Both the position numbers and the translations under genes were made by a program. A stretch of 64,000 nt of DNA from a virus. The stretch lies in the IMG/VR virus record IMGVR_UViG_3300017788_002882, positions 37,717 through 101,716 of that record. One strand, given 5' to 3'. Positions 3,385-58,655 of this stretch are shown one piece after another. The notes under the pieces are model-generated. The model saw only the letters and a list, made by a program, of their open reading frames with translations, was not told the origin of the DNA and did not search any database. Position 1 is the first letter of the stretch, and the number at the start of each line of letters is the position of its first letter.

Positions 3385-3411
3385 TTATAAATTAATTATT
3401 TTCTATAATTA

Positions 3412-4280: not shown

Positions 4281-4293
4281 ATCTATATTTTAT

Positions 4294-15196: not shown

Positions 15197-17935
15197 ATGA
15201 AAGGAACAGTATTCTCAGCCGATTTTGTCAAAGACTCTAACGGAAACTTAAGATTATTAGAACTGAACACGGATACAGGGTTTATAGATCAGGAATTAGT
15301 AAATTTTGATTTCAATGGATTCTTGACTGTATTGTCTTCTAATAACATCACAACATTAGACATTATTTATAAACCATTTTTGCACATTGATTTTGTTAAT
15401 AAATTGATAGAAGAGGTGAATAATACCTTACCACTTATTTCAATCACCTTACATGATGAAAACATTAATTCAATCTATCCGACATCAGTTCCTGATGCCG
15501 CAGATAAATTTGTGTTGAGATTAGCTTACGACGAAACTGCAATATTTGATAGTGTTTACTGTAAAAATAGATTGAATGTTTATAATTTGTTCACTGAAGG
15601 TTCAATTACAGACAACTGTGTTGGTTATTACCATTCTTCATCTTTGGGAACTTTTGACACCTTAACAAAAGAGGTAAATGCCTCTAATATACCAGATGCC
15701 GCGATAAAAGACATTTACGAATCATTCAATCCAATTGATTTTTACAAAATAAATGTTGACAATGGAACAGTTGAAGAAAATTGGGATAATTTTATTCAAG
15801 ATAAATCTGCAGAAGATATTCTGATTGAACAATACCATTTTCATTCGTCAACTCTCGATGAGAATAACCACGTTACGTCTATCAGATTTTTTGCAATAGT
15901 ATATGGCCCTAATTTAGACATTCTTCCTTTACATAGTTACAAAATAAGTTCAATATTCGAACTACCCACTTCGATTGATTTGGAAGAAAACTCAAATAAA
16001 GTGAAAGATTATCATTTTTATGAATTTGCAACTAATATGTTCAAAAAAGATTCTGCTGGAATCTTATCTTCACACGAAGTTTTAATGGGGGACCAAACTT
16101 GGGAAGAAATATCCGAGATTCAGGTTGGAGATAGTATTCAATCTTATTTAATTAGTGGTTCACCACAAAGTGAATCTGATTTAAATTCTTTGAGTTGGAA
16201 CTATGAAGGTGACGAATTTCCTGAAGGGTCTTATCTAACAACCTCCAATGTAGTATTCAAAGATGTTGCCAATTTAAAATATAATTCTATGATGGAAATG
16301 GTAATAGATAGTGATTCATTATTTTCAGGCATTAATAAAAAATATTTAGTCTATGATAGTTTAACTAATAAAAGTAGTTATAAATTTATCTCAGAAATCA
16401 ATGCAATTACAGACTACCTTTATGACATAAATGGACAACTAATTCAAGTTGATGAACTAAATTTTTATGTATCTTCAGAAAATGGGTTGTCGTTTGTAGA
16501 ACTTGATGTTGAAGATTCGGACACTTATATTATAAATGGATCTACAGCGTTTCATAGTGTAGTTTCTCATAACGCTCCTTGTTTTGTAGCAGGAACTCCG
16601 ATTTTGATGGCAGATGGAAGTCAGTTGAACATTGAAGATGTAAAAATTGGTGACAAAATTTTATCATTCGATTTTAAAAATAATGATTCAAAAATTGGAC
16701 AAGTGCTCAATATATTTTCAAGAAAGGTTAATAAAATTGTCGAATATGAATTTTCTAATGGTGGAATACTCAAATCTACATTGGACCATCCATTATATGC
16801 TTTAGACAAAGGATGGTCATCATATTCTGAAACCTTATCAAATAATTTGTACAGTTTAGAAGAGTCTGTTAAAAAAATTGAAGTCGGTGATACTATAAAG
16901 TTTTACGATAGTACTTCAACTATTACTCAAATGCAAGTTTTTGATGGAGATTTTACGGTTTACAACTTATCAGAAATCGAAAAATACCATAATTACTACG
17001 CTAATAATGTCTTAGTCCATAATCGATTTTGTTTTGTAAAAGGTACAATGATTGAAATGGCAGATGGGACATCAAAAAAAATTGAAGATGTTAAAATAGA
17101 TGATTTAGTAATTTCTTTTAATGAAGAAACAAAAACTAAGGAATCTCAAAAAGTTACAAAAATAGTTTCCCCAATTCACAACGATTTAGTAATTTATCAT
17201 TTCGAAAACGGTAAAAATATTACTTGTACATTTGACCATCCATTCTATGTAAATGGTTTAGAACTAGCTTCATATAAACCTTCTTTGACAAACGACAGAT
17301 ATAAACTTGGTGTCGATGTTTCCCAAATAAAAATCGGTGATGTTGTCAACTTAATTGATGATACGTTTACTACAATAACTTCATTCGAGGAATTAGAAAA
17401 GTCTCAGACTGAAACTTTTATATTTGAAGTAGAAAATAATCATAATTTTTATGCAAACGGTATTCTTACTCACAACAAATTCTGTTTCATAGCAGGAACA
17501 AAAATTTTGTTAGAAGACGATATCGAAAAAAACATAGAAGAAATACAAATCGGTGATGTAGTTTTATCATATAACGAAGAAAAAAAAACCATCGAACCCA
17601 AAAAGGTTACAAACACTTCTTCACCAATACATGATGATTTAGTAGAATATACTTTATCGAATGGGATTAAAATAACTTCAACTTTTGACCACCCGTATTA
17701 TGTTAATGGTTTGGAACTTGCGTCTTACAAACCAGAGTGGACCAATGAAAGATACATTTTACCTTCCAATGTGATTGAAATTAGAGTTGGAGATTTTGTA
17801 AATCTGTCTGACAATGAAACTGTAAAAATTGAATCTATAATGGAATTAAGTCGAATTAACACTCGGACGTATATCATTTCTGTGGAAGACAATCACAATT
17901 TTTACGCAAATAAAATTTTAGTACATAACAAATAA
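15197..17935 (+). CDS. Circularly permuted ATP-grasp-like domain fused to four tandem Hint (intein-like/BIL) domains
   Basis: N-terminal SADFVKDSNGNLRLLELNTDT resembles the D-F...LLE-x-N-x-D-T motif of glutathionylspermidine-synthetase-type ATP-grasps. Hint domains: G288-N459 (degenerate), C462-N609, C612-N760 and C763-N911. Hint 2-4 have CFxxGT starts and TxDHP; all four end in HN. Confidence 0.8.
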   Translation: MKGTVFSADFVKDSNGNLRLLELNTDTGFIDQELVNFDFNGFLTVLSSNNITTLDIIYKPFLHIDFVNKLIEEVNNTLPLISITLHDENINSIYPTSVPDAADKFVLRLAYDETAIFDSVYCKNRLNVYNLFTEGSITDNCVGYYHSSSLGTFDTLTKEVNASNIPDAAIKDIYESFNPIDFYKINVDNGTVEENWDNFIQDKSAEDILIEQYHFHSSTLDENNHVTSIRFFAIVYGPNLDILPLHSYKISSIFELPTSIDLEENSNKVKDYHFYEFATNMFKKDSAGILSSHEVLMGDQTWEEISEIQVGDSIQSYLISGSPQSESDLNSLSWNYEGDEFPEGSYLTTSNVVFKDVANLKYNSMMEMVIDSDSLFSGINKKYLVYDSLTNKSSYKFISEINAITDYLYDINGQLIQVDELNFYVSSENGLSFVELDVEDSDTYIINGSTAFHSVVSHNAPCFVAGTPILMADGSQLNIEDVKIGDKILSFDFKNNDSKIGQVLNIFSRKVNKIVEYEFSNGGILKSTLDHPLYALDKGWSSYSETLSNNLYSLEESVKKIEVGDTIKFYDSTSTITQMQVFDGDFTVYNLSEIEKYHNYYANNVLVHNRFCFVKGTMIEMADGTSKKIEDVKIDDLVISFNEETKTKESQKVTKIVSPIHNDLVIYHFENGKNITCTFDHPFYVNGLELASYKPSLTNDRYKLGVDVSQIKIGDVVNLIDDTFTTITSFEELEKSQTETFIFEVENNHNFYANGILTHNKFCFIAGTKILLEDDIEKNIEEIQIGDVVLSYNEEKKTIEPKKVTNTSSPIHDDLVEYTLSNGIKITSTFDHPYYVNGLELASYKPEWTNERYILPSNVIEIRVGDFVNLSDNETVKIESIMELSRINTRTYIISVEDNHNFYANKILVHNK

Positions 17936-17938
17936 ACT

Positions 17939-18091
17939 ATGGATATTACAAAACACCCAAATCTATATAAAAAGAAACCACTAAGCGAAGTAAAGAATAG
18001 AACAACTTCATATTTGTCTAATACTGAAAAAGCTAGATTAGACAGTGTAATCAACAAGTTTTTTGAATTATTCATCGCTAAACATTTGTAA
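17939..18091 (+). CDS. 50-aa Lys-rich peptide (MDITKHPNLYKKKPLSEVKNRTTSYLSNTEKARLDSVINKFFELFIAKHL)
   Basis: Manual translation; fills the gap exactly, starting 3 nt after the Hint gene stop and overlapping the next gene as TAATG. Confidence 0.7.
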   Translation: MDITKHPNLYKKKPLSEVKNRTTSYLSNTEKARLDSVINKFFELFIAKHL

Positions 18092-18546
18092 TGGATGCAT
18101 ACAATTACATAAAAAATCATGTTTTTGTAAAACTTAAACCAAGCAAAATTTCGGGTGTAGGAGTCTTTGCGATTAAGGAAATTCCAATGGATACAGAATT
18201 GTTTCATGTGTGGGAAGGTAAAACTGGATTCTATCCCATTTCACAGACCGAATTGAATGATTTGGATTCTGATTTACAAAATCACATTCATGATTTATTT
18301 TTATTATCTACTCAATTTCCATTAGACACTAATATCTATGTTAAGTTGACTAAAGGTTGTCATTGGATTTACACAAATCCATACTATTTTGTTAATAGTG
18401 GGTTTTATACTAAAAATGCAAACATTGATAAAGAAAGTATGAAATCAATCGAACATATTAGGAAAGGTGAAGAACTTTTGAGTAATTACCAAAGACATGA
18501 AAAAATAGATACACAATTTTATGGTTCAGTTAATAAAATTATCTGA
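18091..18546 (+). CDS. SET-domain methyltransferase
   Basis: PSKISGVGVFAIKEI, FVNSG and IRKGEELLSNY motifs. Confidence 0.8.
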   Translation: MDAYNYIKNHVFVKLKPSKISGVGVFAIKEIPMDTELFHVWEGKTGFYPISQTELNDLDSDLQNHIHDLFLLSTQFPLDTNIYVKLTKGCHWIYTNPYYFVNSGFYTKNANIDKESMKSIEHIRKGEELLSNYQRHEKIDTQFYGSVNKII

Positions 18547-19120
18547 TAAATTCACAATTTACAAATCTCACGACGAGAATTTTTCTAATATCAAAAACGA
18601 TTGCATCAAATATGTGAAATTAAATGATTCATTAGTTATTCACCCAACTCCACAAAATAAAAACAATTCAATTTGGGTAGAAATAAAATCTGAATGTTTT
18701 TTAACCATTAACAACTTAATCAAAAGTCATGTGGAAAAAATTTCTGGTGAAAAATTTAAAAATTACGCTGAACATTTTTGGATATATACCCAAACTAAAG
18801 GGTTTAATTTAGAATGGATGCATCAACATCTATTAGTTCATCCACCTGGAGTATCATTTATTAAAACAGATTATACTTTCACATACTATTTTCAAACCCC
18901 AACTGATATAAGTGGAGATGAGGGTCACATAGTATTTGAAACTGAGGATGGTGTAAGACATAAGTTTTTACCTGAAGAGGGAGATTTTTTTATTTTTCCA
19001 GCAGACATACGACATACTGCAATACCGACTCCTAACTCTGAGATAGATAGAATCGTTTACGCAGGAAACCTATGTTTAAACATTGAAAATCAACGAGAAA
19101 TTGGGACAACTTTAATTTAA
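18521..19120 (+). CDS. Putative 2OG-Fe(II) oxygenase (TIGR02466-like)
   Basis: HQH, TFTYYFQTP, EGDFFIFPADIRH and RIVYAGN motifs. Confidence 0.75.
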   Translation: MVQLIKLSDKFTIYKSHDENFSNIKNDCIKYVKLNDSLVIHPTPQNKNNSIWVEIKSECFLTINNLIKSHVEKISGEKFKNYAEHFWIYTQTKGFNLEWMHQHLLVHPPGVSFIKTDYTFTYYFQTPTDISGDEGHIVFETEDGVRHKFLPEEGDFFIFPADIRHTAIPTPNSEIDRIVYAGNLCLNIENQREIGTTLI

Positions 19121-19128
19121 TAAAAATC

Positions 19129-19602
19129 ATGACACCATTTGAATATATAAAAAACTATGTAGTGAGTGCACTAAAGCCAAGTCGTATTCACGGAGTTGGA
19201 TTTTTTGCAATCAGAGATATTGAAATTGGTGAATCAATATTTAATCCTTGGTTTGGTGAAAGTGGGATATATTCTATCGACCACGATGAATTATTTCAAT
19301 TACCAACGGAATTACAAAAAACAATGTTAGAAACTTTTGACAATAAAATATTCTATATTAACAAAGAAAACCAAGAACAATACATAGAAAAAGAGTATGG
19401 TAAAATTTTCTTCCCATTAGAAAAAGGGTTTCATTGGATTTATATTTGGCCGAAAACTTTTATTAATAGTGGATTAAATAACGCGAATGTCGATACAATT
19501 AATCATGTTAATCCAATTGCATTAAGAAAGATATACAGTGGCGAAGAACTATTAGCGAACTACGGCTCAGAATTTAAGACTACTCCGAAAAACTTTATAT
19601 AG
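19129..19602 (+). CDS. SET-domain methyltransferase (paralogue of 18091)
   Basis: PSRIHGVGFFAIRDI, FINSG and IYSGEELLANY motifs. Confidence 0.8.
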   Translation: MTPFEYIKNYVVSALKPSRIHGVGFFAIRDIEIGESIFNPWFGESGIYSIDHDELFQLPTELQKTMLETFDNKIFYINKENQEQYIEKEYGKIFFPLEKGFHWIYIWPKTFINSGLNNANVDTINHVNPIALRKIYSGEELLANYGSEFKTTPKNFI

Positions 19603-19619
19603 AAACCCCTATAAAAAAA

Positions 19620-20174
19620 ATGACACATAATGTAAAATACAATTGGGAGTTCAATAAAGAAGACATACTTCGAAAAGTCTATAAAAATAAATCCCTACTG
19701 AAACAACCAAATGGTAATACATCACAAAACACAGATGAATTAATGTTTTGTTGTAGAGAATTTGACTCCATCAAAAATTTTGTTGTTAATCAGTATTTTG
19801 AATTAAAAAAAACTCAACATGTAGATTATGCGGTCAGTATGTGGTCTTACATCCAAACAAAAGATTTGCCTCCATCGAATTATATATGGCACACACACTC
19901 AAAATTAGATGGAGGTAGAACCCAACTTAAAACTGATTACACATTTGTTTTCTATGTACAAATACCCCCAAATTTGGAGAATGGGGAAGGTGACTTATTG
20001 ATTAAAGATAAAAACAATCATATTCATAGGATTACACCAAAGGAGGGTGAAATCATTTTTTTCCCTGGATATTTATGGCATGTTCCAACACACACACCAA
20101 CATCTACTATTGATAGGGTTGTTATTGCGGGAAATATTTCTTCTGAATTTTTATTAAATACCGTTTTAATATAA
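19620..20174 (+). CDS. Putative 2OG-Fe(II) oxygenase (paralogue of 18521)
   Basis: WHTH, KTDYTFVFYVQIP, EGEIIFFPGYLWH and RVVIAGN motifs. Confidence 0.75.
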   Translation: MTHNVKYNWEFNKEDILRKVYKNKSLLKQPNGNTSQNTDELMFCCREFDSIKNFVVNQYFELKKTQHVDYAVSMWSYIQTKDLPPSNYIWHTHSKLDGGRTQLKTDYTFVFYVQIPPNLENGEGDLLIKDKNNHIHRITPKEGEIIFFPGYLWHVPTHTPTSTIDRVVIAGNISSEFLLNTVLI

Positions 20175-20179
20175 TAAAT

Positions 20180-20656
20180 ATGATCACTTACATACCCAAC
20201 TTCCTAAGTAATTATGAATGTGAATATTATATTAATTTGTTCAAATCAAATGATATAGAGTTTATGGAATGGATTCAAAAAAAAAATAGACTTGGTGATA
20301 ATGATGTACTAAAATTTTATTACACAGATATAACAGATAATAAATTTGAGACCGACAAGTTTCCCAATTATATTTTCAAAAAGTTAAGAATACAAATGGT
20401 GAACGAATCAATAGACCAATGTAAAGCTCCACATACTCATGTGAATCCATGGTCGTTTGTCATTTTCCTGAATGAAAATTTCATTGGGGGAGAATTAGTT
20501 TTCGATAATATCGAATATGAACCAAAAACAGGAGATATGGTTTATTTTTCTGGAGAAGAGAGGCACAAACTTAACAATTGTGTCGGTGATAGATATACTC
20601 TCATTGGAGGGATGCAAAATAATCCTTTAAACGTGAAAACAGGAAAATTAATTTGA
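20180..20656 (+). CDS. 2OG-Fe(II) oxygenase, prolyl-hydroxylase-like
   Basis: PNFLS..EC, HTH, FLNENFIGGEL, PKTGD, distal H and RY motifs. Confidence 0.75.
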   Translation: MITYIPNFLSNYECEYYINLFKSNDIEFMEWIQKKNRLGDNDVLKFYYTDITDNKFETDKFPNYIFKKLRIQMVNESIDQCKAPHTHVNPWSFVIFLNENFIGGELVFDNIEYEPKTGDMVYFSGEERHKLNNCVGDRYTLIGGMQNNPLNVKTGKLI

Positions 20657-20663
20657 ATGTGGA

Positions 20664-21110
20664 ATGATTGTTTATTATGAAAATTTTTTGAATTCATCAG
20701 AATGTGAGTACTTTACGAATTTATATAAAATAGAAAACGACCAGTATTGCGATGATGATATTTACAAATTTTATTTTATTAATTTAATAGGAAGAGAATT
20801 AATTACCGATAGGTTTTCAACCTTTATATTCAAGAAGTTTAGAGTTCAAATGCTCAACGAATCAATAAATCAGTCTACTATCCCACATCGGCACGTAAAT
20901 CCTTGGTCTTTCATTATTTTTCTTAACGATAATTTTACAGGAGGTGAAGTAATTTTTGACAAAATAAGCTATACCCCCAAAACAGGAGATATGATTTATT
21001 TTTCAGGTGAAGAAAACCACAAAGTCAATAATTGTATTGGAAATAGATATACCTTAGTTGGATTTATGCACAATAACCCAATGAATGTAAAAAAAAACAC
21101 TCTTATATGA
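20664..21110 (+). CDS. 2OG-Fe(II) oxygenase, tandem paralogue of 20180
   Basis: Near-identical core (HVNPWSF..FLN.NF.GGE..FD...Y.PKTGDM.YFSGEE.HK.NNC.G.RYTL). Confidence 0.75.
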   Translation: MIVYYENFLNSSECEYFTNLYKIENDQYCDDDIYKFYFINLIGRELITDRFSTFIFKKFRVQMLNESINQSTIPHRHVNPWSFIIFLNDNFTGGEVIFDKISYTPKTGDMIYFSGEENHKVNNCIGNRYTLVGFMHNNPMNVKKNTLI

Positions 21111-21931
21111 AAAAAAAACTTCTATTAACAATGGGATGTTCCTTCACAGAGGGAGTAGGATGTTATGACCCTGAAGTTGTCTCATACAAAGTTGGTGATA
21201 AAACAAAGTATAAAAAAACAGAAGAAGTTTATTACATTAGTAAAGAAAGATTTCACAAATATTCTTGGCCATCACATCTTCAAAAACAACTCAATTATGA
21301 TACTCTAATCAATTTAGGGTTTGGTGGGTCATCCACCTCAGGTAATGTAAAAGTTTGGTTCGAAAAATACTATAATAAAAATTTTTCTGACGAGTTTGAC
21401 GTTTTGGTTCTTTGGTTATTACCATCTCCAACTAGATTTTCATTCTACAGAGATTCCACACTGATGAATATAAACCCACTGATGGAAAAAAACATTTACA
21501 ATGTTCATAGTTACGAAATCGGAAAAGAATATTTAAAATTCATAAATGATTTAGATATGGACCCAATTCTTGAACAAATTTTTTATGTCAAAATTATGGA
21601 AGAACATTGTATTTCTAAGAAATACAAATTTCTGTATACTCCAATTGATTACCGTCAAAATACTTTTTTTGAAAAATTTCACAATATAAATAATATGATG
21701 AAATTTAATCAATCTATTTTCCCTAACTTCGAAGAAAACTCAAATATGAAATCACTTGTTTGTAGTCATCCAAATGAACTTGGTTATCAATATATCTCTA
21801 ATAATTTATATAATTGGATTAAAACAAATAATCCCGAAATTATTTCAGATAAAAAACCAAACAAATTTGAATCCAAATGGGATGGTTATCCAATTTTTAA
21901 CCATTCACGTGAAGTCAAAATACCTATCTAA
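21107..21931 (+). CDS. SGNH/GDSL-like hydrolase or acyltransferase
   Basis: GCSFTEG, NLGFGGSS and HPNELGY motifs. Confidence 0.7.
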   Translation: MKKKLLLTMGCSFTEGVGCYDPEVVSYKVGDKTKYKKTEEVYYISKERFHKYSWPSHLQKQLNYDTLINLGFGGSSTSGNVKVWFEKYYNKNFSDEFDVLVLWLLPSPTRFSFYRDSTLMNINPLMEKNIYNVHSYEIGKEYLKFINDLDMDPILEQIFYVKIMEEHCISKKYKFLYTPIDYRQNTFFEKFHNINNMMKFNQSIFPNFEENSNMKSLVCSHPNELGYQYISNNLYNWIKTNNPEIISDKKPNKFESKWDGYPIFNHSREVKIPI

Positions 21932-21967
21932 TAATGATAAAAAAAAAATTTTTGTTATTATATATCT

Positions 21968-23017
21968 ATGAACTCAGAGGTAGACTTAAAAAAATATTTT
22001 TGTACAGTACCATTCAAAAACTTGGAGATTCACACTAATGTCTGTTTTGCATGCTGTCCATCTTGGTTGCCAAACAAAATAGAAACCTCAGAAATTCCTT
22101 TGAAGGAAGTTTGGAATAGTACTCCAATGACTGACATTCGGGAATCAATAATTGATGGATCCTTCAAATACTGTGATAAAGAATTATGTCCTTATTTGAG
22201 TAAACTTATCAACTTTGGTGAAACATCTGGCCCCGTCCAATTGAAAACTGAATCTACACCTAAATCTCCATTTTTGAATGAAGGACCAAAAGTCTTGGTA
22301 ATGAATTTCGATAGGACTTGTAATTATAAATGTCCATCTTGTAGAGTAGATTTGATTGTAGAGGATAAAAAAGGAATACAACGAGTAGAAAAAACAATAG
22401 AGGAAATAGATTCCTTTTACTCCAAGGACGTTAAGACATTATATATAACAGGTTCAGGGGACCCATTTATATCCGTAGGTTTCAGAAACTACTTGCGTAA
22501 TTTTGACCCCAAGAAATATCCTAAACTGAAGTCGATTCATTTTCATACTAATGCATCGATGTGGAATAAAGAAATGTGGGATAGTATGCCAAATGTTCAC
22601 AAATACGTCAAAAGTTGTGAGATAAGTATAGATGCTGGGACAAAAGATACTTACGAAAACAAAACAAGATTAGGAGGAAAGTGGGATAATCTCATAGAAA
22701 ATTTAAATTTCATAAATACAATTCCGAGTTTGAAATATGTCAAAACATCATTTGTAGTACAAGATTCGAACTACAGGGAGATGGAATTATTCTACAATAT
22801 AATGTACTCAATTTTCGGAAAAAAAGTTGGGGTGTTCTTTGGAAAAATAACTAACTGGGGAACATTCGGTGAAGATGAATTTAAATCGAAACAAGTATGG
22901 GATAATTCGCATCCCGAACATGAATTATTCAAAGAAGAATTCAATAAAATTAGTAAGAACAAATATATGTTCCATAACTTACACGAATTTACAGATAAAA
23001 CCAAAACTTTGATATAA
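21968..23017 (+). CDS. Radical SAM protein with N-terminal Cys-rich (SPASM/twitch-like) region
   Basis: CNYKCPSC, GSGDPF and ISIDAG motifs; N-terminal C..PF...ACC...C...CP. Confidence 0.85.
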   Translation: MNSEVDLKKYFCTVPFKNLEIHTNVCFACCPSWLPNKIETSEIPLKEVWNSTPMTDIRESIIDGSFKYCDKELCPYLSKLINFGETSGPVQLKTESTPKSPFLNEGPKVLVMNFDRTCNYKCPSCRVDLIVEDKKGIQRVEKTIEEIDSFYSKDVKTLYITGSGDPFISVGFRNYLRNFDPKKYPKLKSIHFHTNASMWNKEMWDSMPNVHKYVKSCEISIDAGTKDTYENKTRLGGKWDNLIENLNFINTIPSLKYVKTSFVVQDSNYREMELFYNIMYSIFGKKVGVFFGKITNWGTFGEDEFKSKQVWDNSHPEHELFKEEFNKISKNKYMFHNLHEFTDKTKTLI

Positions 23018-23577
23018 TGAAAATATTGGTATTATCTCATACTAGAAGTGGTTCTACTACCTTATGTAAATGGATTTCGAGGGAGATGAAGATTGAGTTG
23101 GATGAAACTCCATATAATAAAAAAACTTTCTATTCAGTTTTTGATAAGAAAGATATAGTTAGAAAAATAGTCATTGAGGAATTCGCACCTCCGAACCATG
23201 TAATTCTTAAATTTGATAAAGTAATTTGTTTGACCCGTGATGATAGTGTTGAAACTGCGATAAGTTTCATCATGGCAAAAAAAACTGATAAATGGCATGT
23301 CGAATATGATATTACTAATGATTGGATTATTGAAAATAAAAATGAAATAATACGGAGGAAAAATTGGTATGATAGTATGAAATCAGTCCTAAAAAAATAT
23401 GATGTACTACAATTAAAATATGAAAACATTTATATCAATAAAACAGAATTGAAATTATTAACTGACTACCTGAATATTACAAGCCCCCAACATTTACATT
23501 TACTTGATTACACTAAAAAATATAGAAAAGATAGATTCCAATTGATTCATGATTTTGAAAGAAAAGATATTATTTAG
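23017..23577 (+). CDS. Sulfotransferase-like P-loop protein (Stf0-like)
   Basis: SHTRSGSTTL 5'-PSB loop, LTR...AIS 3'-PB motif and YE. Confidence 0.7.
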   Translation: MKILVLSHTRSGSTTLCKWISREMKIELDETPYNKKTFYSVFDKKDIVRKIVIEEFAPPNHVILKFDKVICLTRDDSVETAISFIMAKKTDKWHVEYDITNDWIIENKNEIIRRKNWYDSMKSVLKKYDVLQLKYENIYINKTELKLLTDYLNITSPQHLHLLDYTKKYRKDRFQLIHDFERKDII

Positions 23578-24046
23578 TGCGAAGGAATGCCAATCCATAA
23601 TTTGGGACGAAACCAAAAATATAAATAATCATTCCTATGTAAGTGATAGAAGATACAACTCACAGCCAATAAAGTATGATGAAAATACTAAATGGATATT
23701 CGAAAAACTTTCCGAGTTTTTCCAAGAAGAAACTAAGTTGAAAATCACTGCGATCAAAAATAAAATCCACTTTCATAAATTCGTTGCAGGAGATTGGTTT
23801 GGAAAACATAATGACGCAATTGACAACAGAGTTTATGCGGTTGGGGTTCTATTGAATGAAAATTTTGAGGGGGGTGACTTCAAGTTGTATAACCCCAACG
23901 AATATACATTGAATAAAACCGTTGGCAACGCTTACATATTTGAAGTAAATATAGACCATGAAATCACACCAATTTTAAGTGGAGAAAGATATTCTTTGTT
24001 ATGGTTTTTACAGAAAGATAATTTGATTACAAAAACAATAATTTAA
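23549..24046 (+). CDS. 2OG-Fe(II) oxygenase, prolyl-4-hydroxylase-like
   Basis: HND, LNENFEGGDF and HEITPILSGERYSL motifs. Confidence 0.85.
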   Translation: MILKEKILFSAKECQSIIWDETKNINNHSYVSDRRYNSQPIKYDENTKWIFEKLSEFFQEETKLKITAIKNKIHFHKFVAGDWFGKHNDAIDNRVYAVGVLLNENFEGGDFKLYNPNEYTLNKTVGNAYIFEVNIDHEITPILSGERYSLLWFLQKDNLITKTII

Positions 24047-25213
24047 ATGGAAATAGATTTTTGGTTTACAGATATATTCAAAGGGTCAGGTATTCAAGAA
24101 ATGCTCGAAAAAATAGACAGAAATATTTCATTCAAAAATGTTGATACAGACGTAATTGATTCAAATAAATTGAACCTATTAGTTTTTGTTTGGGAAACAA
24201 GTCCAAAACTTCCATACACAACATACACTACTTCGGATGAATTTATAGATTTACTCAAAAAACTTCAGGATAAAAAGTTTTACTTTATGGCAGATTTTTC
24301 AAGAGAAGCCCACAACAGAGTAGATGAACTTAGTTTATCTTTTTTGAATAAATTGAAATCCAACGGAATAGACATCAACCGATTGGTTCTTGTTAAAAAT
24401 GACTCCTTGAAAATCGGTTTACACAAAATGAAATATGAGAATTTCACATTAAATACATTTTTCTTTCCCCACTTTTTCTTATCAACATATAACCATCTCA
24501 AACAATATATTAACCCCGAAAACGAAAGAACAAAAATAGAACCAGATAAAAAATTTCTGTGTTTAAATCGGAGGGTATTTTATCACAAGTATCAAATTAT
24601 TGAAGAGTTGTTCAAAAGAGGTTTATTGGATGAAACACGGCTAACTTGGGTAGACAATTATACCCCTCTCAAAATGATCGATTTAGATTTGGCACATAAA
24701 CTAAAATTAAATGGTCTCGAGTTCAAATCCATACAATTAGAAGGCGATGTTATGTACGGTAGTAGACTATCATATCACGACGAATTCTTATTTACAATTA
24801 ATCCAGATTGGTATTATAATAGTAAAGTAGATATAATTACTGAAACCATGTTATATGACGAGGCGATACATATCACCGAGAAAACTTACAAATCAATTTA
24901 TTTAGGATTACCGTTTGTTGTATCCGCAACCAAAGGACATCTAAAACACCTACGAGACATGGGGTTCAAAACGTTCAATTCAATCATAAATGAGGATTAT
25001 GATGAAATGAATGGTAAAAATAAAGTGAAACACGTTATAGATGCTGCTATAGAATTATCGAACGTATATGATAATCCTGAAGTGATAGAAATTTGTAAGT
25101 TCAACAGAGAACTCTATTTCGATTCTGAATTTCGGAAGAAAATTTGTAAAAAATTTTTTTTGGATAAATTACATGAAATCAAAGATAAATCACACCCTAA
25201 CTCATTAATCTAA
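24047..25213 (+). CDS. GT10-like (putative GT-B) protein, phage paralogue family
   Basis: KKFLCLNR, IITET, ITEKTYK, PF and GFKTF...I.E.YD motifs shared with 5 paralogues. Confidence 0.5.
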   Translation: MEIDFWFTDIFKGSGIQEMLEKIDRNISFKNVDTDVIDSNKLNLLVFVWETSPKLPYTTYTTSDEFIDLLKKLQDKKFYFMADFSREAHNRVDELSLSFLNKLKSNGIDINRLVLVKNDSLKIGLHKMKYENFTLNTFFFPHFFLSTYNHLKQYINPENERTKIEPDKKFLCLNRRVFYHKYQIIEELFKRGLLDETRLTWVDNYTPLKMIDLDLAHKLKLNGLEFKSIQLEGDVMYGSRLSYHDEFLFTINPDWYYNSKVDIITETMLYDEAIHITEKTYKSIYLGLPFVVSATKGHLKHLRDMGFKTFNSIINEDYDEMNGKNKVKHVIDAAIELSNVYDNPEVIEICKFNRELYFDSEFRKKICKKFFLDKLHEIKDKSHPNSLI

Positions 25214-25217
25214 ATTT

Positions 25218-26030
25218 ATGGAATCATTAAAATACTGGTCTCCCAATGATTTTGAAATTTCATCATTAAGATATAAACTTAATGGTCAAAAAAGAGTTAA
25301 AGAGTTCAGAACTCCAACAAGCACTGAAACTAAATCCTGTACCTATACCTATAATGATTTAGGATATAGAGGAGACTCAATGCATAAAAATGGCTTTCGT
25401 ATTATGTCAATTGGATGTTCATTGACTGAAGGAGTTGGTATTAATGATGATGAAACATGGCCTAATCAATTTACGAAAATGGTTACTAATGGTGTGGATT
25501 TAAACTTTGGTTGTGGAGGAAGGAGTAATGATTATATTAGTAGGTGTTTATTAAGTTATTATGATTTAATTAAACCCGATTTAGTTTTAATCATGTACAC
25601 TTCTTTGGAAAGACGGGAAGTGTGGACTAAAAGTAATGGTGTGAAACCATTTATGCCCCCTTGTTGGGGCTATTTGCGAGACTCTGATGAAGGAAGAAAC
25701 ACCTGTAATAATTTGGTTGATTTACAAAACGATAATTCTGATTTCATAAATTGGTATAAAAATCATTTGTTAATAAAATTATTCTTGGAATCGAAAAAAT
25801 GTAATTGGATTTGGAATGGTTCGTTTGGAGTTCATAAAGAGTTCAAGGAATATAATAGATTTGACGGAGATTATATGAGTGATTCATTTATTGACTTAGC
25901 ATCTGATGAGTCCCATCCAGGCTCAAAACATAATAAAGAATACGTTATTAAATTATTCAATCATTTGAAACAAAACTTTCCGAATTATTTATCGAATGAT
26001 TACCATTCTATTAACCAAAAATTATTTTGA
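25218..26030 (+). CDS. SGNH-like protein
   Basis: YTYNDLGYRGD, GCSLTEGVG, GGRSND and DESHPG motifs. Confidence 0.7.
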   Translation: MESLKYWSPNDFEISSLRYKLNGQKRVKEFRTPTSTETKSCTYTYNDLGYRGDSMHKNGFRIMSIGCSLTEGVGINDDETWPNQFTKMVTNGVDLNFGCGGRSNDYISRCLLSYYDLIKPDLVLIMYTSLERREVWTKSNGVKPFMPPCWGYLRDSDEGRNTCNNLVDLQNDNSDFINWYKNHLLIKLFLESKKCNWIWNGSFGVHKEFKEYNRFDGDYMSDSFIDLASDESHPGSKHNKEYVIKLFNHLKQNFPNYLSNDYHSINQKLF

Positions 26031-26821
26031 AAATGAAATCACTTCAATTTTGGAAACCTGAGACATTCGAAATTTCTTCATACAAATATCACCTTGACGG
26101 TAGGAAAAATAAATCCTTTAGTACATCAGGAAGTGATAATACAGGATTGTGTACATATACATATAATGAATTAGGATTTAGGGGAGATTCAATCAATAAA
26201 TCTGGATTCAAAGTAATGTCAATCGGGTGTTCATTAACCGAAGGAGTCGGTGTAAATGACGATGAAACTTGGCCTTACCAATTTACCCAACTCATACCCG
26301 ACAGTGTGAATCTAAATTTTGGGTGTGGTGGTAGGAGTAATGATTATATACTGAGATGCTTAGTCACCCACTATGATTTAATTAATCCTGATTTGGTATT
26401 AATAATGTATACCTCTCCTCAGAGAAGAGAAATATATACAGATAATGGTGGGATTGAACCATTTATCCCAACATTATCTTGGGGTTATATGGATGAAACT
26501 GAAAGAGGAAGAGAAATCCAAAACTGCTTAATAGAATTACAGAATGAAAATGAAGATTTTATCAATTGGTATAAAAATCACATAACCATAAAATTATTTT
26601 TGGAATCAAAAAATTGTAATTGGTTATGGAATGGATCATTCGGTATACCTAAAAAATATTCGGAATTTAATAGGTTTGATGGTGATTATATGAATGAACC
26701 ATTTTTGGATTTGAGTGTTGAAGGTTTACATCCAGGTCCACTTCATAATAAACTTTATGCGGAAAATTTGATGAATCACATGAAAATCAATTTTCCTGAT
26801 TATTTATCGAGTACTTCATGA
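26027..26821 (+). CDS. SGNH-like protein (paralogue of 25218; likely start ATG 26033)
   Basis: GCSLTEGVG, GGRSND and EGLHPG motifs. Confidence 0.7.
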   Translation: MKMKSLQFWKPETFEISSYKYHLDGRKNKSFSTSGSDNTGLCTYTYNELGFRGDSINKSGFKVMSIGCSLTEGVGVNDDETWPYQFTQLIPDSVNLNFGCGGRSNDYILRCLVTHYDLINPDLVLIMYTSPQRREIYTDNGGIEPFIPTLSWGYMDETERGREIQNCLIELQNENEDFINWYKNHITIKLFLESKNCNWLWNGSFGIPKKYSEFNRFDGDYMNEPFLDLSVEGLHPGPLHNKLYAENLMNHMKINFPDYLSSTS

Positions 26822-27429
26822 AAAGAACAAAAATGGTGATTGGATTACACACTTCTATGGAATTCTTGGAAGAAACGAAAGATGATAAATCATTAACGGT
26901 TTTTGCATTTGAACCCAACAAAGATATAGTATCCAAAATTTATAACGAATTTGAAATCCCACCAAATTATGTGATAATCGACAAAGCAGTATCAAATATT
27001 GATGGTAAAGTACCTTTTTATATTTGTTCATTGGATTCATGTTCAAGTTTGATGAATTGGGGTAATGGCCCAAAGTTAGGTGAAATGAGAGAAGTTGAGG
27101 TTGAATGTATAAGAATGGACAATTTTATAATAGATAATGAAATTGAAAATATCGAATTTATAATAATTGATACACAAGGGAATGACCTTAACGTCCTGTA
27201 CGGTTTTGGAGAAAAATTTCAAATAGTAGAAAAAGGAACATGCGAGAGTCTTTCCGAAGAGACAAATTGGAAACTTTATGAAAATCAACCATCATTCTCA
27301 GACTTTGCAAAATTTTTCAAAAAAAACAATTACACAATATCATGGGATTGGAATTGGGGGGGAGCAATTCAATTCAACGAAATAAACATCGAATTTGAAA
27401 AATTAAAAAAACTAAATAAGTTAATATAA
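26818..27429 (+). CDS. FkbM-family methyltransferase
   Basis: FAFEPN, AVSN, SSL and IDTQGNDL motifs. Confidence 0.75.
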   Translation: MKRTKMVIGLHTSMEFLEETKDDKSLTVFAFEPNKDIVSKIYNEFEIPPNYVIIDKAVSNIDGKVPFYICSLDSCSSLMNWGNGPKLGEMREVEVECIRMDNFIIDNEIENIEFIIIDTQGNDLNVLYGFGEKFQIVEKGTCESLSEETNWKLYENQPSFSDFAKFFKKNNYTISWDWNWGGAIQFNEINIEFEKLKKLNKLI

Positions 27430-27431
27430 TT

Positions 27432-28226
27432 ATGAACGCTTTGAAATTTTGGTCTCCGAACAATTTCGAATTTTCTTCCTTAAGAAGTTTACTTACGAGG
27501 AAAAAAGTTAAACTTGGAACAGACAACACAGGATTATGCACTTACTCCTATAATGAGCTTGGATTCAGGAGTGATTCAATCTACAGTAAAGGATTCAAAA
27601 TCATGTCAATAGGTTGTTCAAACACTGAAGGAATAGGTGTGAATGATAATCAAACTTGGCCTCATCAATTTTCTAGATTGATTTCCAATGGAATAGATTT
27701 AAATTTCGGTGCATCGGGTCGAAGTAACGATTATATTTCAAGATGTTTGTTAAGTTATTATGACTTGATAAAACCTGATTTAATTTTGATAATGTACACT
27801 TCACCTCGAAGACGCGAGGTATATACAAAAAATTCAGGAGTGAAACCTTTTCTATATGAAGATTCTTGGGGATTTTTGCGTGAAACCGAAGAAGGTAAAA
27901 TGATTCAAAATAATTTACTTCTATTACAAAATGACAATGAAGATTTTATGAATTGGTATAAAAATCATTTATTGATTAAATTATTTTTGGAATCGAAAAA
28001 AAGTAATTGGATATGGAATGGTTGGTTTAATATACCTTCTGAATATTTGGAATTTAATCGATTTGATGGATTATACGGAAAGTTTGTTGATTACGGTGCT
28101 GATGGAGGCCATCCTGGCCCCCAACACAATAAAATCTACGCAGAAACCTTACTCAAACACATAGAAAGTAACTTCCCGAATTATTTGCCAACTGAAAACC
28201 AAACTTATGAAAGTAAGTTAATTTAA
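27432..28226 (+). CDS. SGNH-like protein (paralogue of 25218)
   Basis: GCSNTEGIG, SGRSND and DGGHPG motifs. Confidence 0.7.
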   Translation: MNALKFWSPNNFEFSSLRSLLTRKKVKLGTDNTGLCTYSYNELGFRSDSIYSKGFKIMSIGCSNTEGIGVNDNQTWPHQFSRLISNGIDLNFGASGRSNDYISRCLLSYYDLIKPDLILIMYTSPRRREVYTKNSGVKPFLYEDSWGFLRETEEGKMIQNNLLLLQNDNEDFMNWYKNHLLIKLFLESKKSNWIWNGWFNIPSEYLEFNRFDGLYGKFVDYGADGGHPGPQHNKIYAETLLKHIESNFPNYLPTENQTYESKLI

Positions 28227-30003: not shown

Positions 30004-31232
30004 TATAAATTATTTTTACCGATTATTTCGAACTTTGGACATGGTACGATAAATTTACCTCCACGTTCTAAGAATTCATGTTCTCTTTCGATAAATTCAG
30101 AAATAAAGTGCCAAGGTAAAACCAGCAAATAGTCAGGCTCCATTTTTCTGACATCTTCCTCAGATAATATCGGAATGTTTGTACCTATTGTTTTGTGTCC
30201 GTACTTGTAAGGACTTCGTTCTGCAATTACCTCGATTAATGTATCATCTATTCCGAAATACTGTAATAAGGTATTTCCTTTACTTGAAGCTCCATACCCA
30301 CAAATTTTCTTCCCTTTTGCCTTCTCTTCTTTCAGAAAATCCAATGTTTGTTTTTTTAGGTCCTGTACTTTTTCGTAGAAATCCATCCATGTTTCTTCTG
30401 AGTCTAAATTTTGTGTTTTTTCCCAATTTAATATCGATTCAACTCTAACATCACAAACATCACGATAAGGTCTTGTTGCAAATTTAGTCTCATCAGAATT
30501 TTTCTTCTTGATGTAAATTCTAAAACTTCCTCCATTTACATCATTCAATTGACAATCAACTATTTTGAGGTCAGCCTCGATCATCAATTTGTTGAGTGAT
30601 GATAATGACCAATAATAAACATGTTCGTGAGTTATGTTGTCAAACGCTAATTGTTTTATCATCAGAGGAGTATAACTCATTTGAATTACGAACAAACCAT
30701 CATCATCAAGAACTTCATTAATATCTTTAAGAAAATCTATAGGTTCATCCAAATCATAAAACATGGCAATACATGTGATTACCTTAGCCTTTTTTTCCGC
30801 AAACTGTGACCTTTTGTAGGATTCTAAAGTGAAATAATCTTCAATTATTTCATCTGCAAATTGTCTTGATTCAACTGTGAAGGTTTCATCTGTTGGGTCA
30901 ATCCCTAACTTTTTGATTTGCTGAGGTACGTAACCTAATAATGTACCATCATTACATGCTATATCCAACCATAAATCATCTCTCTCTAATTTTTGGACTT
31001 TTAATATACTTGAAACTATGTTGAGTAATTCTTTTCGCATAGTTGTATTTGTTCCACTTCTATACCAATATTTTCCAAACATGGAATGAATTGGAGTACA
31101 CTTTTCTAATCGTGCCGCCCCATATCTTTCATCGATTGTCAGGGTCAAATCATGTTTTCCCGCTCTTCCTTCTTCATCTTGTTTGATGAAATCAGAAACA
31201 TATAAATCACCGAAACTAAATAATTTTTTCAT
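30003..31232 (-). CDS. NDP-hexose C-methyltransferase-like protein
   Basis: DIACNDGTLL, HEHVYY, NGGSFR, GYGASSKGNTLL and PDYLLVLPWHF motifs. Confidence 0.85.
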   Translation of the reverse strand: MKKLFSFGDLYVSDFIKQDEEGRAGKHDLTLTIDERYGAARLEKCTPIHSMFGKYWYRSGTNTTMRKELLNIVSSILKVQKLERDDLWLDIACNDGTLLGYVPQQIKKLGIDPTDETFTVESRQFADEIIEDYFTLESYKRSQFAEKKAKVITCIAMFYDLDEPIDFLKDINEVLDDDGLFVIQMSYTPLMIKQLAFDNITHEHVYYWSLSSLNKLMIEADLKIVDCQLNDVNGGSFRIYIKKKNSDETKFATRPYRDVCDVRVESILNWEKTQNLDSEETWMDFYEKVQDLKKQTLDFLKEEKAKGKKICGYGASSKGNTLLQYFGIDDTLIEVIAERSPYKYGHKTIGTNIPILSEEDVRKMEPDYLLVLPWHFISEFIEREHEFLERGGKFIVPCPKFEIIGKNNL

Positions 31233-31978
31233 ATCAAACTTTTATCTCTTTTAAAACCTTCATTTTGCCCCCAATCCATGAACTTATTGAAAACTGAAAA
31301 ACTATTTATTTCAGAACTTTTCAAATCTCTAACATTCGGTCTTATCAATTTCAAATCAAAATCGGGTAATTGAACCACATAATAATCTAATTTTAAAATT
31401 TCTCGGGCGAATTCTGTATGAATATTTCCAGACATTTTTGTTGGAAGACTATCAATTACGTTAAACAAGGTTTCGAAATGACCCATAAAATAATACTCAA
31501 CCAAATAATATTCTTGTGTTGAAGGTCTACCTGTTATGTATATTGGGGTCAGCCCATAAATGACACCTTCTTTGATTAAACTATGATAGAAATCAGGAGT
31601 GTAATTATAAAATGAATAATTATCTGGTCTTGTCATGATTAACATGTCATATTCAATACCACTTTCTTTAATCATGTTCAATGAACTTTTCATCAAAAAA
31701 AGATGTTTCTCATTATGAAACGCCCTATCTCCTGAAAAATCATAATCGTTCACATCATAAATTTTGATTTTTGCACTTGGAATATGTTCCAAAATTGTGT
31801 CTTCAGTAATGTCTTCTTCAATGTGAACATTCAATACTTTACTTGATTGAACCGACTTTTTCCAAGTGGAAAAATAAACATCACAATCAAGGTCATTCAA
31901 AAACTTCCATGATTTGACTGCAATGTCAAATTGTCTACACATTCCTGAAACTAAAACAGCGGTTTTCATCATATTCAA
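31229..31978 (-). CDS. Hypothetical glycan-modifying/GT-like protein
   Basis: AVLVSG..R, DVYFSTW and YD.LI.TRPD pattern common in polysaccharide loci. Confidence 0.45.
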   Translation of the reverse strand: MNMMKTAVLVSGMCRQFDIAVKSWKFLNDLDCDVYFSTWKKSVQSSKVLNVHIEEDITEDTILEHIPSAKIKIYDVNDYDFSGDRAFHNEKHLFLMKSSLNMIKESGIEYDMLIMTRPDNYSFYNYTPDFYHSLIKEGVIYGLTPIYITGRPSTQEYYLVEYYFMGHFETLFNVIDSLPTKMSGNIHTEFAREILKLDYYVVQLPDFDLKLIRPNVRDLKSSEINSFSVFNKFMDWGQNEGFKRDKSLI

Positions 31979-33217: not shown

Positions 33218-33753
33218 TTTGTGTATAATTGGGGATATTCAACAATAACATGAATTCCTCCTTCATTGTAAGCTTCTTTGTACTTATCTTCAATTAATTC
33301 ATGAGATAATAGATTATGAAATGTAATATTTTTACAAAGTGACTGATACTCAGTGAAATAATCCCCTTTGTGTTGATGTCCTGGGTCTATCGGATAATCC
33401 GACCCTTTACCTAATCTGACAATTATATTGGGATTGAATTGATTATTGCTCATCAATTTTATTTTGTCCAAATGATTCAATAATTGATTTGTAGCACAAA
33501 TCAAAAAATCCCATCTGGGGTAAAAAGTAATCACGAAATGTCCAGTCATCGCCATTCCCAAAGACATACCCATTTGTGAATCCTCCATTACTGGTAATTC
33601 AATAATTTTATTTTTTGGAACATTTCCCAACGTTGTACTCATTGGGTTTCCTGGATAAAGAGTTTGTTGTCCAATAAAAATTGTATCGGATTGTTCGGCT
33701 AAAAAAGTCATTGCATTTGTCAATGCATCCTTATAACTTGTATCTTGATTCAT
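33214..33753 (-). CDS. ThDP enzyme beta/pyrimidine-binding subunit (E1-beta/transketolase-like, short)
   Basis: ELPVMEDSQMGMSLGMAM, ATNQLLN and GHQH motifs. Confidence 0.8.
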   Translation of the reverse strand: MNQDTSYKDALTNAMTFLAEQSDTIFIGQQTLYPGNPMSTTLGNVPKNKIIELPVMEDSQMGMSLGMAMTGHFVITFYPRWDFLICATNQLLNHLDKIKLMSNNQFNPNIIVRLGKGSDYPIDPGHQHKGDYFTEYQSLCKNITFHNLLSHELIEDKYKEAYNEGGIHVIVEYPQLYTK

Positions 33754-34991
33754 ATTAAACTATTGTAGAAATTAAAGTCTGTTTTGTCATTTTTGATGTC
33801 TTCGAAAATTTGAATATTTTTATCGAAACGATTTTTATTATTCTTGAAAAAACTTATTATATCTTGTTTTTTGGTGTTCAATCTTAAGATTTCATTGATA
33901 ATCATTTCAAATCTTTTTTTTGCATTTGGTTCATTGTCATAACTATGATCGACAATATCATCGAAAAAATCAAAATTATACCTATCCTTCATTTTTTTAA
34001 TATGATTTGCACTTGCCATTATAATTGGAATTTGAGAAAAATATAAAGGTATAAAAGATTTTTCACTCAGGATTATAATATCATTTTTTTCAAAATTGGT
34101 TTCAGTAACTATGTTAATGTATGAATTTTTGTATGGATTGTTTGAATAAGAGGCAACTGTGTCGAATGTATGAGGAGGATAATCAACTTGATAATTTTTT
34201 TCGTAAATGCTATTATGTATTTGAACATCAAGAAGTTTGATAATTTCTTTTTCATATATCAAAACCTCACTTTCAGTAAAGAATTGACTCAAATATGGTT
34301 TGAAATTTGAAAGACTGCCCGAATTGATGAAAAGTTCTCTCATTTCATATCCCCTTATCCAACTCCAATCTGTATCGTCAACTATGTTATGGTACATCAA
34401 ATAAACTAATAGAGCGAACCGATGTATTTTCACCTTTCGATTATATGACATGAATAAAAAATTTCTCTCTTTTTTGTAATTGTAAGGAAATCTGGTCAAT
34501 TCATTAGCAATTGCGAACTTTCCATTATTAGTTGTATGAGTAATCAAATCAACATCAAACTTTGTTTTTACATCATGATTGATTTCATTACAATTAATTA
34601 CTACAAATTTTTTGGTAGGAATACCCATTTTTTTCAATAGGGCATCGAGACTATTGATTAAATTATCATCATCAGATTCAGCATCGTTCTTAACTATCAC
34701 ATAAAAATTCGGATTGAATTTTAATAAGTCAATTACCTTTTCACTGAAGGGTAAATCTTGTTTTGAAACAATTTCTGCCGCTAAATAATATCGATATTCA
34801 TAAAAATAATAATACTTTTGATTATCGTTAGGAATTTCATTGATGTTGAAAACTTTGAATTTGAACCCTTCAGGATTACGCATTCCTACATAACAATCAA
34901 AATAATTGATTACATCCTGTTTGAATACATCGACCTCATCATAAACTAAATTCAAAAAATTACCCATTTTCCAGTTCCGTAGTGCGGCCAC
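33750..34991 (-). CDS. GT10-like paralogue (likely start ATG 34967)
   Basis: FLFMSYNR...HR, INIVTET, LSEKSF and FFDDIVDHSYD motifs. Confidence 0.5.
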   Translation of the reverse strand: MAALRNWKMGNFLNLVYDEVDVFKQDVINYFDCYVGMRNPEGFKFKVFNINEIPNDNQKYYYFYEYRYYLAAEIVSKQDLPFSEKVIDLLKFNPNFYVIVKNDAESDDDNLINSLDALLKKMGIPTKKFVVINCNEINHDVKTKFDVDLITHTTNNGKFAIANELTRFPYNYKKERNFLFMSYNRKVKIHRFALLVYLMYHNIVDDTDWSWIRGYEMRELFINSGSLSNFKPYLSQFFTESEVLIYEKEIIKLLDVQIHNSIYEKNYQVDYPPHTFDTVASYSNNPYKNSYINIVTETNFEKNDIIILSEKSFIPLYFSQIPIIMASANHIKKMKDRYNFDFFDDIVDHSYDNEPNAKKRFEMIINEILRLNTKKQDIISFFKNNKNRFDKNIQIFEDIKNDKTDFNFYNSLI

Positions 34992-58459: not shown

Positions 58460-58655
58460 CTATGGTAGGTTCTTTTGGTTTGATTGTATTATGCCACTCC
58501 GCTAAATAATATTGGATACGGTCGCTCCACTCTTGTTTTTCAATTTCTTCGACCCAAACTGTTAAAGCGTCCAAAGTATTCGCAATTTTTTCTAAAGCTT
58601 TAACTTTTCGTTGCTCGAGCAACATTTTTTCTTTTTCTTTATCTAATTCTGTCAT
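58452..58655 (-). CDS. Hypothetical protein (67 aa)
   Basis: Overlaps both neighbours in the operon. Confidence 0.6.
   Translation of the reverse strand: MTELDKEKEKMLLEQRKVKALEKIANTLDALTVWVEEIEKQEWSDRIQYYLAEWHNTIKPKEPTIDE

Follow-up and report, generated by a model that had tools for sequence, protein, structure and literature searches.

A short C-terminal tag on unrelated tailoring enzymes of an uncultured jumbo phage, possibly a docking label, is linked in position to an ATP-grasp/Hint protein

The right-hand 64 kb of a 101,716-bp IMG/VR virus record (IMGVR_UViG_3300017788_002882, positions 37,717 to 101,716; this whole stretch of 64,000 nucleotides is the window referred to below, and coordinates are those of the window unless a contig, locus or other genome is named) encode a set of small, unrelated enzymes that share a C-terminal tag of about four residues, approximately Lys-Thr-Leu-Ile-COOH. 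The tag is enriched far beyond what composition predicts, it is conserved throughout a lineage of related phages, and it is linked in position to one gene, here called HEAD (15197..17935, +), whose product combines an ATP-grasp-like ligase (residues 1-284) with a Hint/bacterial intein-like (BIL) domain (residues 285-452) and three more Hint domains, and itself ends, untagged, in VHNK. With moderate confidence we suggest that the tag is a C-terminal address, a docking label by which small, interchangeable enzymes are brought to a reader that all of them share.

The 15 consecutive plus-strand open reading frames (ORFs) between 18091 and 28226 end, in order, in NKII, TTLI, KNFI, TVLI, GKLI, NTLI, KIPI, KTLI, KDII, KTII, NSLI, QKLF, SSTS, NKLI and SKLI. 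A final Ile closes 13 of the 15 and [LI]I (Leu or Ile, then Ile) closes 11, with varied Leu and Ile codons and all three stops in use; the first-pass annotation of this stretch had reported these ends and counts, and rereading returned them exactly. In the same genes Ile makes up 8.4% of residues and [LI]I 1.5% of dipeptides, frequencies that give a binomial P of 9e-13 for the final Ile and 8e-18 for [LI]I. Across the record, [LI]I closes 0/61 core genes, 0/9 genes of the left island, 11/15 genes of the cluster and 7/36 genes of the right arm, the last seven lying on a convergent minus arm (28-60 kb), which amounts to 18/51 tagged genes in the island as against 0/70 elsewhere.

The enrichment also survives the controls that the first-pass annotation had singled out, for A+T content and for stop/start overlap. 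The 2365 out-of-frame stop triplets inside the island genes, which match the true ends in local DNA composition and in stop context, served as a control: an [LI]I-coding hexamer preceded 2.0% of them (2.2% in the cluster), versus 73% of the true gene ends in the cluster. Nine of the 15 cluster genes do not overlap the next gene, and all nine end in Ile. All-against-all BLAST clustering of 1604 distinct proteins, drawn from the present genome and 128 related loci, gave more than 15 BLAST-unrelated families that are mostly tagged. Neither A+T content, stop context, gene overlap nor paralogy accounts for the tag, and neither does a DNA motif.

A logo built from 283 tagged nonredundant proteins has Ile (72%) or Leu (24%) at the terminal position, P0; Leu (75%) or Ile (19%) at P-1; Thr (31%), Lys (18%), Ser (18%) or Asn (13%) at P-2; and Lys (50%) or Asn (21%) at P-3, with Lys at 26-31% from P-4 to P-6. 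The consensus is thus a Lys-rich stretch followed by K/N, T/K/S/N, L/I and I/L-COOH; information of about 2.5 bits falls exactly on the last two positions, in strict register to the C-terminus. The untagged genes of the same loci give a flat logo, and a general C-terminal enrichment in Lys is seen in them too.

The first-pass annotation had described the tag as a signal appended behind a variable linker and had made its conservation in the orthologues of related phages a further check; both points hold for the glycosyltransferase GT-B-like protein encoded at 24047-25213. Of its 112 full-length orthologues, which are 54-91% identical, 107 keep an [LI]I end, and the 6-8 residues ahead of the tag vary freely. 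In an AlphaFold model of this protein (pLDDT 89.6, pTM 0.89) a terminal coil of seven residues runs on past the last helix. Homologues from other phage groups, at 26-36% identity, have unrelated ends, and their neighbors are untagged. These observations support the view that the tag is an appended signal, carried behind a variable, unstructured linker at a free C-terminus.

Selection on the protein rather than on a DNA motif had likewise been proposed from the varied codons, and a larger sample bears this out. Among 190 nonredundant [LI]I-ending genes from the lineage, the tag Leu codons are TTA (73%), TTG (11%) and CTN (16%), which does not differ from the internal usage of the same genes; the Leu codons, together with the Ser, Thr, Lys and Asn codons at P-2, follow internal usage (chi-square p 0.08-0.87), and 59% of the tag Ser codons are TCN. 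Single orthologue families display all of the synonymous codons and all three stops. The tag goes with the gene and not with the junction: the radical SAM gene retains xLI before eight different downstream families, its 44 tagged orthologue sequences keep the tag while their codons vary, a gap of at least 10 nt follows 28% of the tagged genes, and in 19 cases the next gene is on the opposite strand. Since the synonymous codons stand at background, the DNA motif seen at gene ends is not specific to them (see below) and the tag stays with its gene, it is the peptide on which selection acts.

The source of the DNA is an uncultured giant freshwater phage (record GC content 33%, CheckV completeness 33%), whose genome we designate G000; its relatives include G001 (complete, 335,630 bp, 413 ORFs), G002 and G003, and each of these three carries a single HEAD. 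Among 41 loci that each have a distinct HEAD sequence, the first four genes after HEAD (+1 to +4) bear the tag in 98, 97, 92 and 89% of loci, the share drops to about 10% by +15, and genes at -1 to -5 are tagged in 33-53%, a profile biased by the way the 41 loci were gathered, via radical SAM and GT-B homologues near HEAD. G003, which was reached by a HEAD profile search alone, is free of this bias, and there all 10 of the 10 genes flanking HEAD end in xLI. In G001, 34 of the 413 ORFs have [LI][LI] ends, and 9 of the 13 in the 10 kb after HEAD do. The tag thus marks the enzymes of one cassette around HEAD. In the first-pass annotation the landmark had been a Hint gene with tagged genes downstream of it; the tight link proves to be to the ATP-grasp/Hint gene itself. 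The tag consensus is unchanged across five HEAD clades that are less than 25% identical, for which reason we set aside genome-specific "flavors" of the tag as a sign of coevolution with HEAD; the only difference between clades, fewer Leu at P0 in the clade of the window (1/29 versus 52/214), is too weak to use.

The Pfam matches of HEAD are to Hint/intein families, with no Pfam match on the ligase part. In an AlphaFold2 model of HEAD (pLDDT 80.5), residues 285-452 adopt a Hint/BIL fold that superimposes on the BIL domain of C. thermocellum (VIA Z 17.4, root-mean-square deviation 1.8 over 134 residues), and the C-terminal His-Asn expected of such a domain is nearly invariant in an alignment of 24 HEAD sequences that are often less than 25% identical. 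In the clade of the window HEAD has four Hint domains with dipeptides between them, and the first of these lacks Cys1 in the family consensus (M-A-D-G-T) and retains His-Asn. For residues 1-284, Foldseek returned the GspS-like proteins YjfC/YgiC, glutathionylspermidine synthetase and glutathione synthetases (E 6e-5 to 1e-3, TM score about 0.3), and the Atlas score for ATP-grasp was 0.77. Invariant or nearly so in the alignment are E22-x-N24-T25, R108, K171, R230 and the acidic stretch R-x-A-Y-D-T-T-A-L-V-D-D-x-Y-C. E-x-N is the Mg-binding motif of ATP-grasp enzymes; its N-terminal place in HEAD would, we presume, agree with a permuted fold of the kind seen in eukaryotic glutathione synthetase. 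Across clades the ligase part carries a net charge of -11 to -25.

The HEAD of most relatives carries, behind His-Asn, a terminal Cys-rich peptide that is hypervariable and 35-40 residues long; in the present window and in two small clades the protein ends instead in further Hint domains, without that peptide. The HEADs that lack the peptide are trailed by a conserved ORF of 46-50 codons. In the window this is the 50-aa ORF between HEAD and the first tagged gene (17939..18091, +; untagged, ending AKHL), to which a 46-aa ORF at the same place in locus L069 of a distant relative (7949-8089) is 36% identical over 42 aa (E 2e-8). As both of these HEADs are without the Cys-rich peptide, the 46-50-aa protein may replace it as a substrate or adaptor. 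The tag persists where HEAD has lost the peptide.

A lineage of uncultured jumbo phages has put one tag on at least 20 unrelated families of small tailoring enzymes. In the mechanism that we consider most likely, the tag would plug interchangeable enzymes, with no recognition domain of their own, into a common reader, and the docked enzymes would act on one shared substrate. The candidate reader is the acidic HEAD protein, which we consider the most likely one because of the positional link, because its ligase fold is of a kind that holds C-terminal carboxylates and because its acidity stands opposite the Lys-rich tail; the fold belongs to enzymes that grip the C-terminal carboxylates of peptides. 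Docking in this sense would be noncovalent. Two other kinds of reader were considered. Hsp20 follows the tagged run in 26 loci, and in G001 some 170 kb separate it from the cassette, its neighbor being the gene for a ClpC-like protein; the groove motif of small heat-shock proteins is I-x-I and not x-L-I, and we have rejected it. In G000, G001 and G002 there was no match to PDZ_2 (PF13180, the sole PDZ model used) and none to TPR_16.

Several points count against this proposal. HEAD is proposed as the reader from where its gene lies and from what is generally known of its fold, and the assignment of that fold is itself moderate, given the TM and Atlas scores above. The acidity of HEAD, though real, is not extreme (rank 6/91 in G000 and 27/238 in G001), and as a sign of complementarity to the Lys-rich tail we have set it aside. 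The HEAD of the window, with four Hint domains and no Cys-rich peptide, does not fit, as it stands, a simple picture in which the enzymes tailor a peptide borne by HEAD. The biased collection of the 41 loci has been mentioned; in addition, the other arm has tagged genes at distances of up to 40 kb from HEAD, and there are orthologue pairs of which one member is tagged and the other is not.

Of the alternatives, we would take most seriously, while still thinking it unlikely, that the tag is a C-degron, a basic-then-aliphatic free C-terminus read by a Clp-type unfoldase (a phage ClpC-like protein with ClpP, or host ClpXP or ClpAP) so that the tailoring enzymes are removed on schedule. C-terminal signals read by ClpX include LAA-COOH of ssrA and RRKKAI-COOH of MuA; the tag resembles the MuA type in placing basic and then small or aliphatic residues at the free C-terminus, which must be free, as for ssrA. 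Candidate machinery is encoded in relatives: G001 encodes ClpP (E 4e-58) among replication rather than capsid genes, along with a two-ring ClpC-like AAA+ protein that has a VGF ClpP-docking loop, and ClpP is found in G002 too. The present genome, by contrast, gave no match to ClpP or AAA_2 in its 101.7 kb (33% complete). A general timing degron, moreover, would not predict a tag that is limited to one biosynthetic cassette and tracks distance from HEAD, nor does it sit well with precursor-supply enzymes that are left untagged in the same operons. The G001 proteostasis set (loci L138 and L143) comprises the ClpC-like protein (109705-111717, -), Hsp20 (111874-112230, +) and ClpP (212530-213207, +); the ClpC-like AAA+ protein lacks the N-domain, and the Hsp20 gene adjoins the ClpC-like gene.

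The tag might instead be a ligation handle, the ATP-grasp domain of HEAD activating the terminal Ile carboxylate of the tagged enzymes and joining it covalently to an amine freed by Hint cleavage, such as the N-terminus of the released peptide, or to some other acceptor; we regard this as quite unlikely. The folds nearest to HEAD are those of glutathione synthetase and GspS, both of them ligases in which a peptide is activated at its C-terminal carboxylate; HEAD has the invariant E-x-N-T, and the tag is the only conserved free C-terminus in the neighborhood, the ends of the HEAD peptides being hypervariable. A first Hint domain with His-Asn and without Cys1 would also fit a C-terminal cleavage that frees an amine. 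Against this, the idea is wholly inferential and there is no precedent for marking an entire enzyme set like this, one HEAD molecule would be spent per ligation if the peptide derives from HEAD, and the HEAD of the window has no such peptide. If it were true, the tag would be the C-terminal handle common to an entire group of enzymes, and these phages would encode a system for protein ligation that is independent of ubiquitin.

A tail without a dedicated reader, in which Lys and two aliphatic residues hold the enzymes at a membrane or a polyanionic substrate by nonspecific binding, seems to us very unlikely. The residues from P-3 to P-6 are Lys-rich (26-50%), the last two are aliphatic, and a small DUF2061 membrane protein is encoded in the cassette of relatives; yet Lys is enriched at the C-termini of untagged genes as well, and the information at exactly the last two positions, in strict register with the terminus, points to a pocket that reads the free end.

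We think it highly improbable that the signal belongs to the nucleic acid or to translation, with a motif AAnAnnTTRATWTRA that serves coupling, termination or cassette shuffling, or with an effect of the nascent peptide on termination. A DNA logo of that form can be seen between -12 and the stop, junctions are often tight, with a median gap of 1 nt, and the last Ile codon is shifted to ATA (59% versus 44%, p 4e-4), the sole codon deviation observed. The ATA excess is due to ATATGA stop/start overlaps: many tagged genes end ATA-TGA, and the last Ile codon and the stop form the ATG of the next gene, as at 21107-21110 and at the minus-arm ends 31229, 33750, 39774, 57017 and 58652. The logo shows zero conservation 3′ of the stop, and synonymous codons used at the background rate, including CTN for Leu and TCN for Ser, break the motif. 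Only 13 of the 45 occurrences of the 9-nt DNA motif on the record are at gene ends, and the tag is kept on genes that are last in their operon and before any neighbor. No frame-independent nucleotide conservation tied to the junctions was found.

Chance, A+T-rich composition or the shared ancestry of paralogues, despite a genome GC content of about 30% that makes codons for Lys, Asn, Ile and Leu common and despite several tagged genes being paralogues (2-oxoglutarate [2OG] oxygenases, SET, SGNH and GT-B), is refuted by the enrichment (P about 1e-17 against the genes' own composition, 0/70 other genes on the record), the family clustering and the 2% rate at out-of-frame stops.

The families that bear the tag consist of small tailoring enzymes, most of them with little annotation: 2OG and Asp/Asn-hydroxylase-type oxygenases, SET, radical SAM, Stf0-like, FkbM, SGNH/GDSL, GT-B and GT2 proteins. 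The plus-strand run begins with a SET-like protein (18091..18546, ending NKII), a 2OG-Fe(II) oxygenase-like protein (18521..19120, TTLI), a SET domain protein with the variant tag KNFI (19129..19602), a second 2OG-Fe(II) oxygenase-like protein (19620..20174, TVLI) and two paralogous 2OG-Fe(II) oxygenases (20180..20656, GKLI; 20664..21110, NTLI). It goes on with a protein of unknown family that has the final Ile in an atypical tag, KIPI (21107..21931), a radical SAM enzyme with the consensus tag KTLI (21968..23017), a Stf0-like sulfotransferase (23017..23577, KDII), another 2OG-Fe(II) oxygenase (23549..24046, KTII) and the 388-aa GT-B-fold glycosyltransferase-like protein (24047..25213, NSLI). 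Two SGNH-like paralogues follow, one with the variant tag QKLF (25218..26030) and one that ends in SSTS just past the domain end NFPDYL, with neither linker nor tag (26027..26821); then come an FkbM methyltransferase (26818..27429, NKLI) and a third SGNH-like paralogue (27432..28226, SKLI), the last gene of the run, with no same-strand gene downstream. The two exceptions, QKLF and SSTS, are paralogues of the SKLI gene, and all three have as their best match a single gene of one relative, which ends QNLI.

On the minus strand the tagged products are a protein of unknown family (31229..31972, KSLI), a GT-B-like paralogue (33750..34967, NSLI), an FkbM-like protein identified by a weak match (39774..40331, NKLI), a GDSL/SGNH-like protein (43350..44123, NKLI), a further protein of unknown family (46238..47578, RSLI; its G001 orthologue ends ESLI), another GT-B-like paralogue (48739..50028, KKII; KSLI in G001) and a GT2-like protein with the tag-like end IVLI (58652..59509). 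The folds named in the first-pass annotation fared unevenly: 2OG, radical SAM and FkbM matches reach or approach Pfam cut-offs and the 388-aa protein is GT-B by model and Foldseek, whereas the SET, Stf0 and GDSL (SGNH) matches are weak.

The carbamoyltransferase, sugar C-methyltransferase and adenosine 5′-phosphosulfate (APS) kinase are without the tag. In relatives the APS kinase, an unknown 127-aa protein and the DUF2061 membrane protein adjoin HEAD upstream (e.g., L014:3949-4986), and in the present genome the APS kinase and the 127-aa protein are about 50 kb away at the left contig end (contig 1522-2353, locus L001, outside the window). These two proteins probably supply 3′-phosphoadenosine 5′-phosphosulfate (PAPS) to the tagged sulfotransferases. 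A giant protein of 1642-1811 aa that ends SGRVVVVR follows the tagged run (L059:12482-20201; G003:71578-79914); in L059 and G003 it precedes two or three paralogues of about 370 aa, all ending SGHCGWR[T/A/G], a second conserved C-terminus.

The window contains an island of about 50 kb with genes that modify glycans and peptides. The left part of the record carries replication genes, among them a primase (PHROG 47, E 9e-44) and an SbcC-like gene (PHROG 77, E 5e-41), matches that point to a prokaryotic phage system. The SbcC-like protein matches deposited phage genomes at no more than 28% identity. Large proteins encoded to the left of the island (889-7506, -) have no PHROG function, and the DNA of that segment has no match among deposited phages. 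HEAD and the radical SAM enzyme gave 0 tblastn matches among 50,697 deposited phage genomes, and a scan of 185,579 species genomes, in which one peptide pattern was usable, returned no relative of HEAD.

Literature searches turned up no description of the tag, nor did we find a report of a phage in which one tag of four residues, tied to a single ligase/self-cleaving protein, has been acquired independently by at least 20 unrelated enzyme families. The tag offers a simple sequence rule by which, in hundreds of uncultured jumbo phages, one can recognize the proteins of a pathway that annotation would otherwise miss. Should it act as a docking label, interchangeable tailoring enzymes would be recruited to one substrate by a means that is both new and very compact, and that could be reused directly in engineering by appending some 4-7 residues.

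That unrelated clients can share an address of three or four residues at the C-terminus is a known concept, and such short tags are textbook material in eukaryotic sorting (peroxisomal targeting signal 1 [PTS1], KDEL, the tripeptide of the cytosolic iron-sulfur assembly [CIA] pathway), bacterial degrons and encapsulin cargo. PTS1 is S-K-L-COOH read by the TPR domain of Pex5, and class I PDZ ligands have the form [S/T]-x-hydrophobic-COOH; like these, the phage tag is a free-carboxylate tripeptide on unrelated enzymes. About half of the tags agree with the class I PDZ form: Thr or Ser stands at P-2 in 49% and Ile or Leu at P0 in 96%, and Lys or Asn takes P-2 in 31%. The last three residues do not conform to PTS1, [SAC]-[KRH]-[LM], SKL or NKL here being trailed by Ile, and the hosts are prokaryotes. 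The cargo peptides of encapsulins and microcompartments, of about 10-20 aa, bind a shell protein. They share with the tag a short terminal extension on a flexible linker, carried by unrelated enzymes encoded beside the gene for their common partner; unlike them, the tag is shorter and its candidate partner is a ligase/Hint protein, and no shell-like gene was noticed among the annotated families of the cassette, no search having been aimed at shell genes. With the ClpX signals discussed above the tag shares its basic-to-aliphatic character, and a relative has both ClpC-like and ClpP genes; we know of no degron that marks the whole enzyme set of one pathway.

A close parallel in logic is the tripeptide [LIM]-[DES]-[WF]-COO- of eukaryotic cytosolic Fe-S proteins, which is necessary and sufficient to recruit a single machinery, the CIA targeting complex (Marquez et al., PMC10245660). 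Both are free C-terminal signals of 3-4 residues on unrelated client enzymes; they differ in that the CIA tripeptide is acidic and then aromatic, is eukaryotic and has a known reader, whereas the tag is polar and then twice aliphatic and belongs to a phage biosynthetic cassette. The tag consensus, K/N-T/K/S/N-L/I-I/L, does not follow the [LIM]-[DES]-[WF] pattern. Among phages, a tandem array of dioxygenases has been noted in cyanophage Syn9 (Iyer et al. 2010, PMC2938197). The Syn9 array, which has tandem dioxygenases in common with the present cassette, has no tag. With the tag in hand, the function of such long-noted phage dioxygenase arrays becomes a testable question. Lastly, the cassette recalls the systems that make ribosomally synthesized and posttranslationally modified peptides (RiPPs), in that 2OG oxygenases, radical SAM enzymes, a sulfotransferase and methyltransferases are encoded beside an ATP-grasp ligase and a hypervariable Cys-rich peptide. 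In RiPP recruitment by a leader peptide and a RiPP recognition element (RRE) the logic is the reverse of the one we suspect here, where the enzymes carry the tag and the precursor-like protein would carry the reader.

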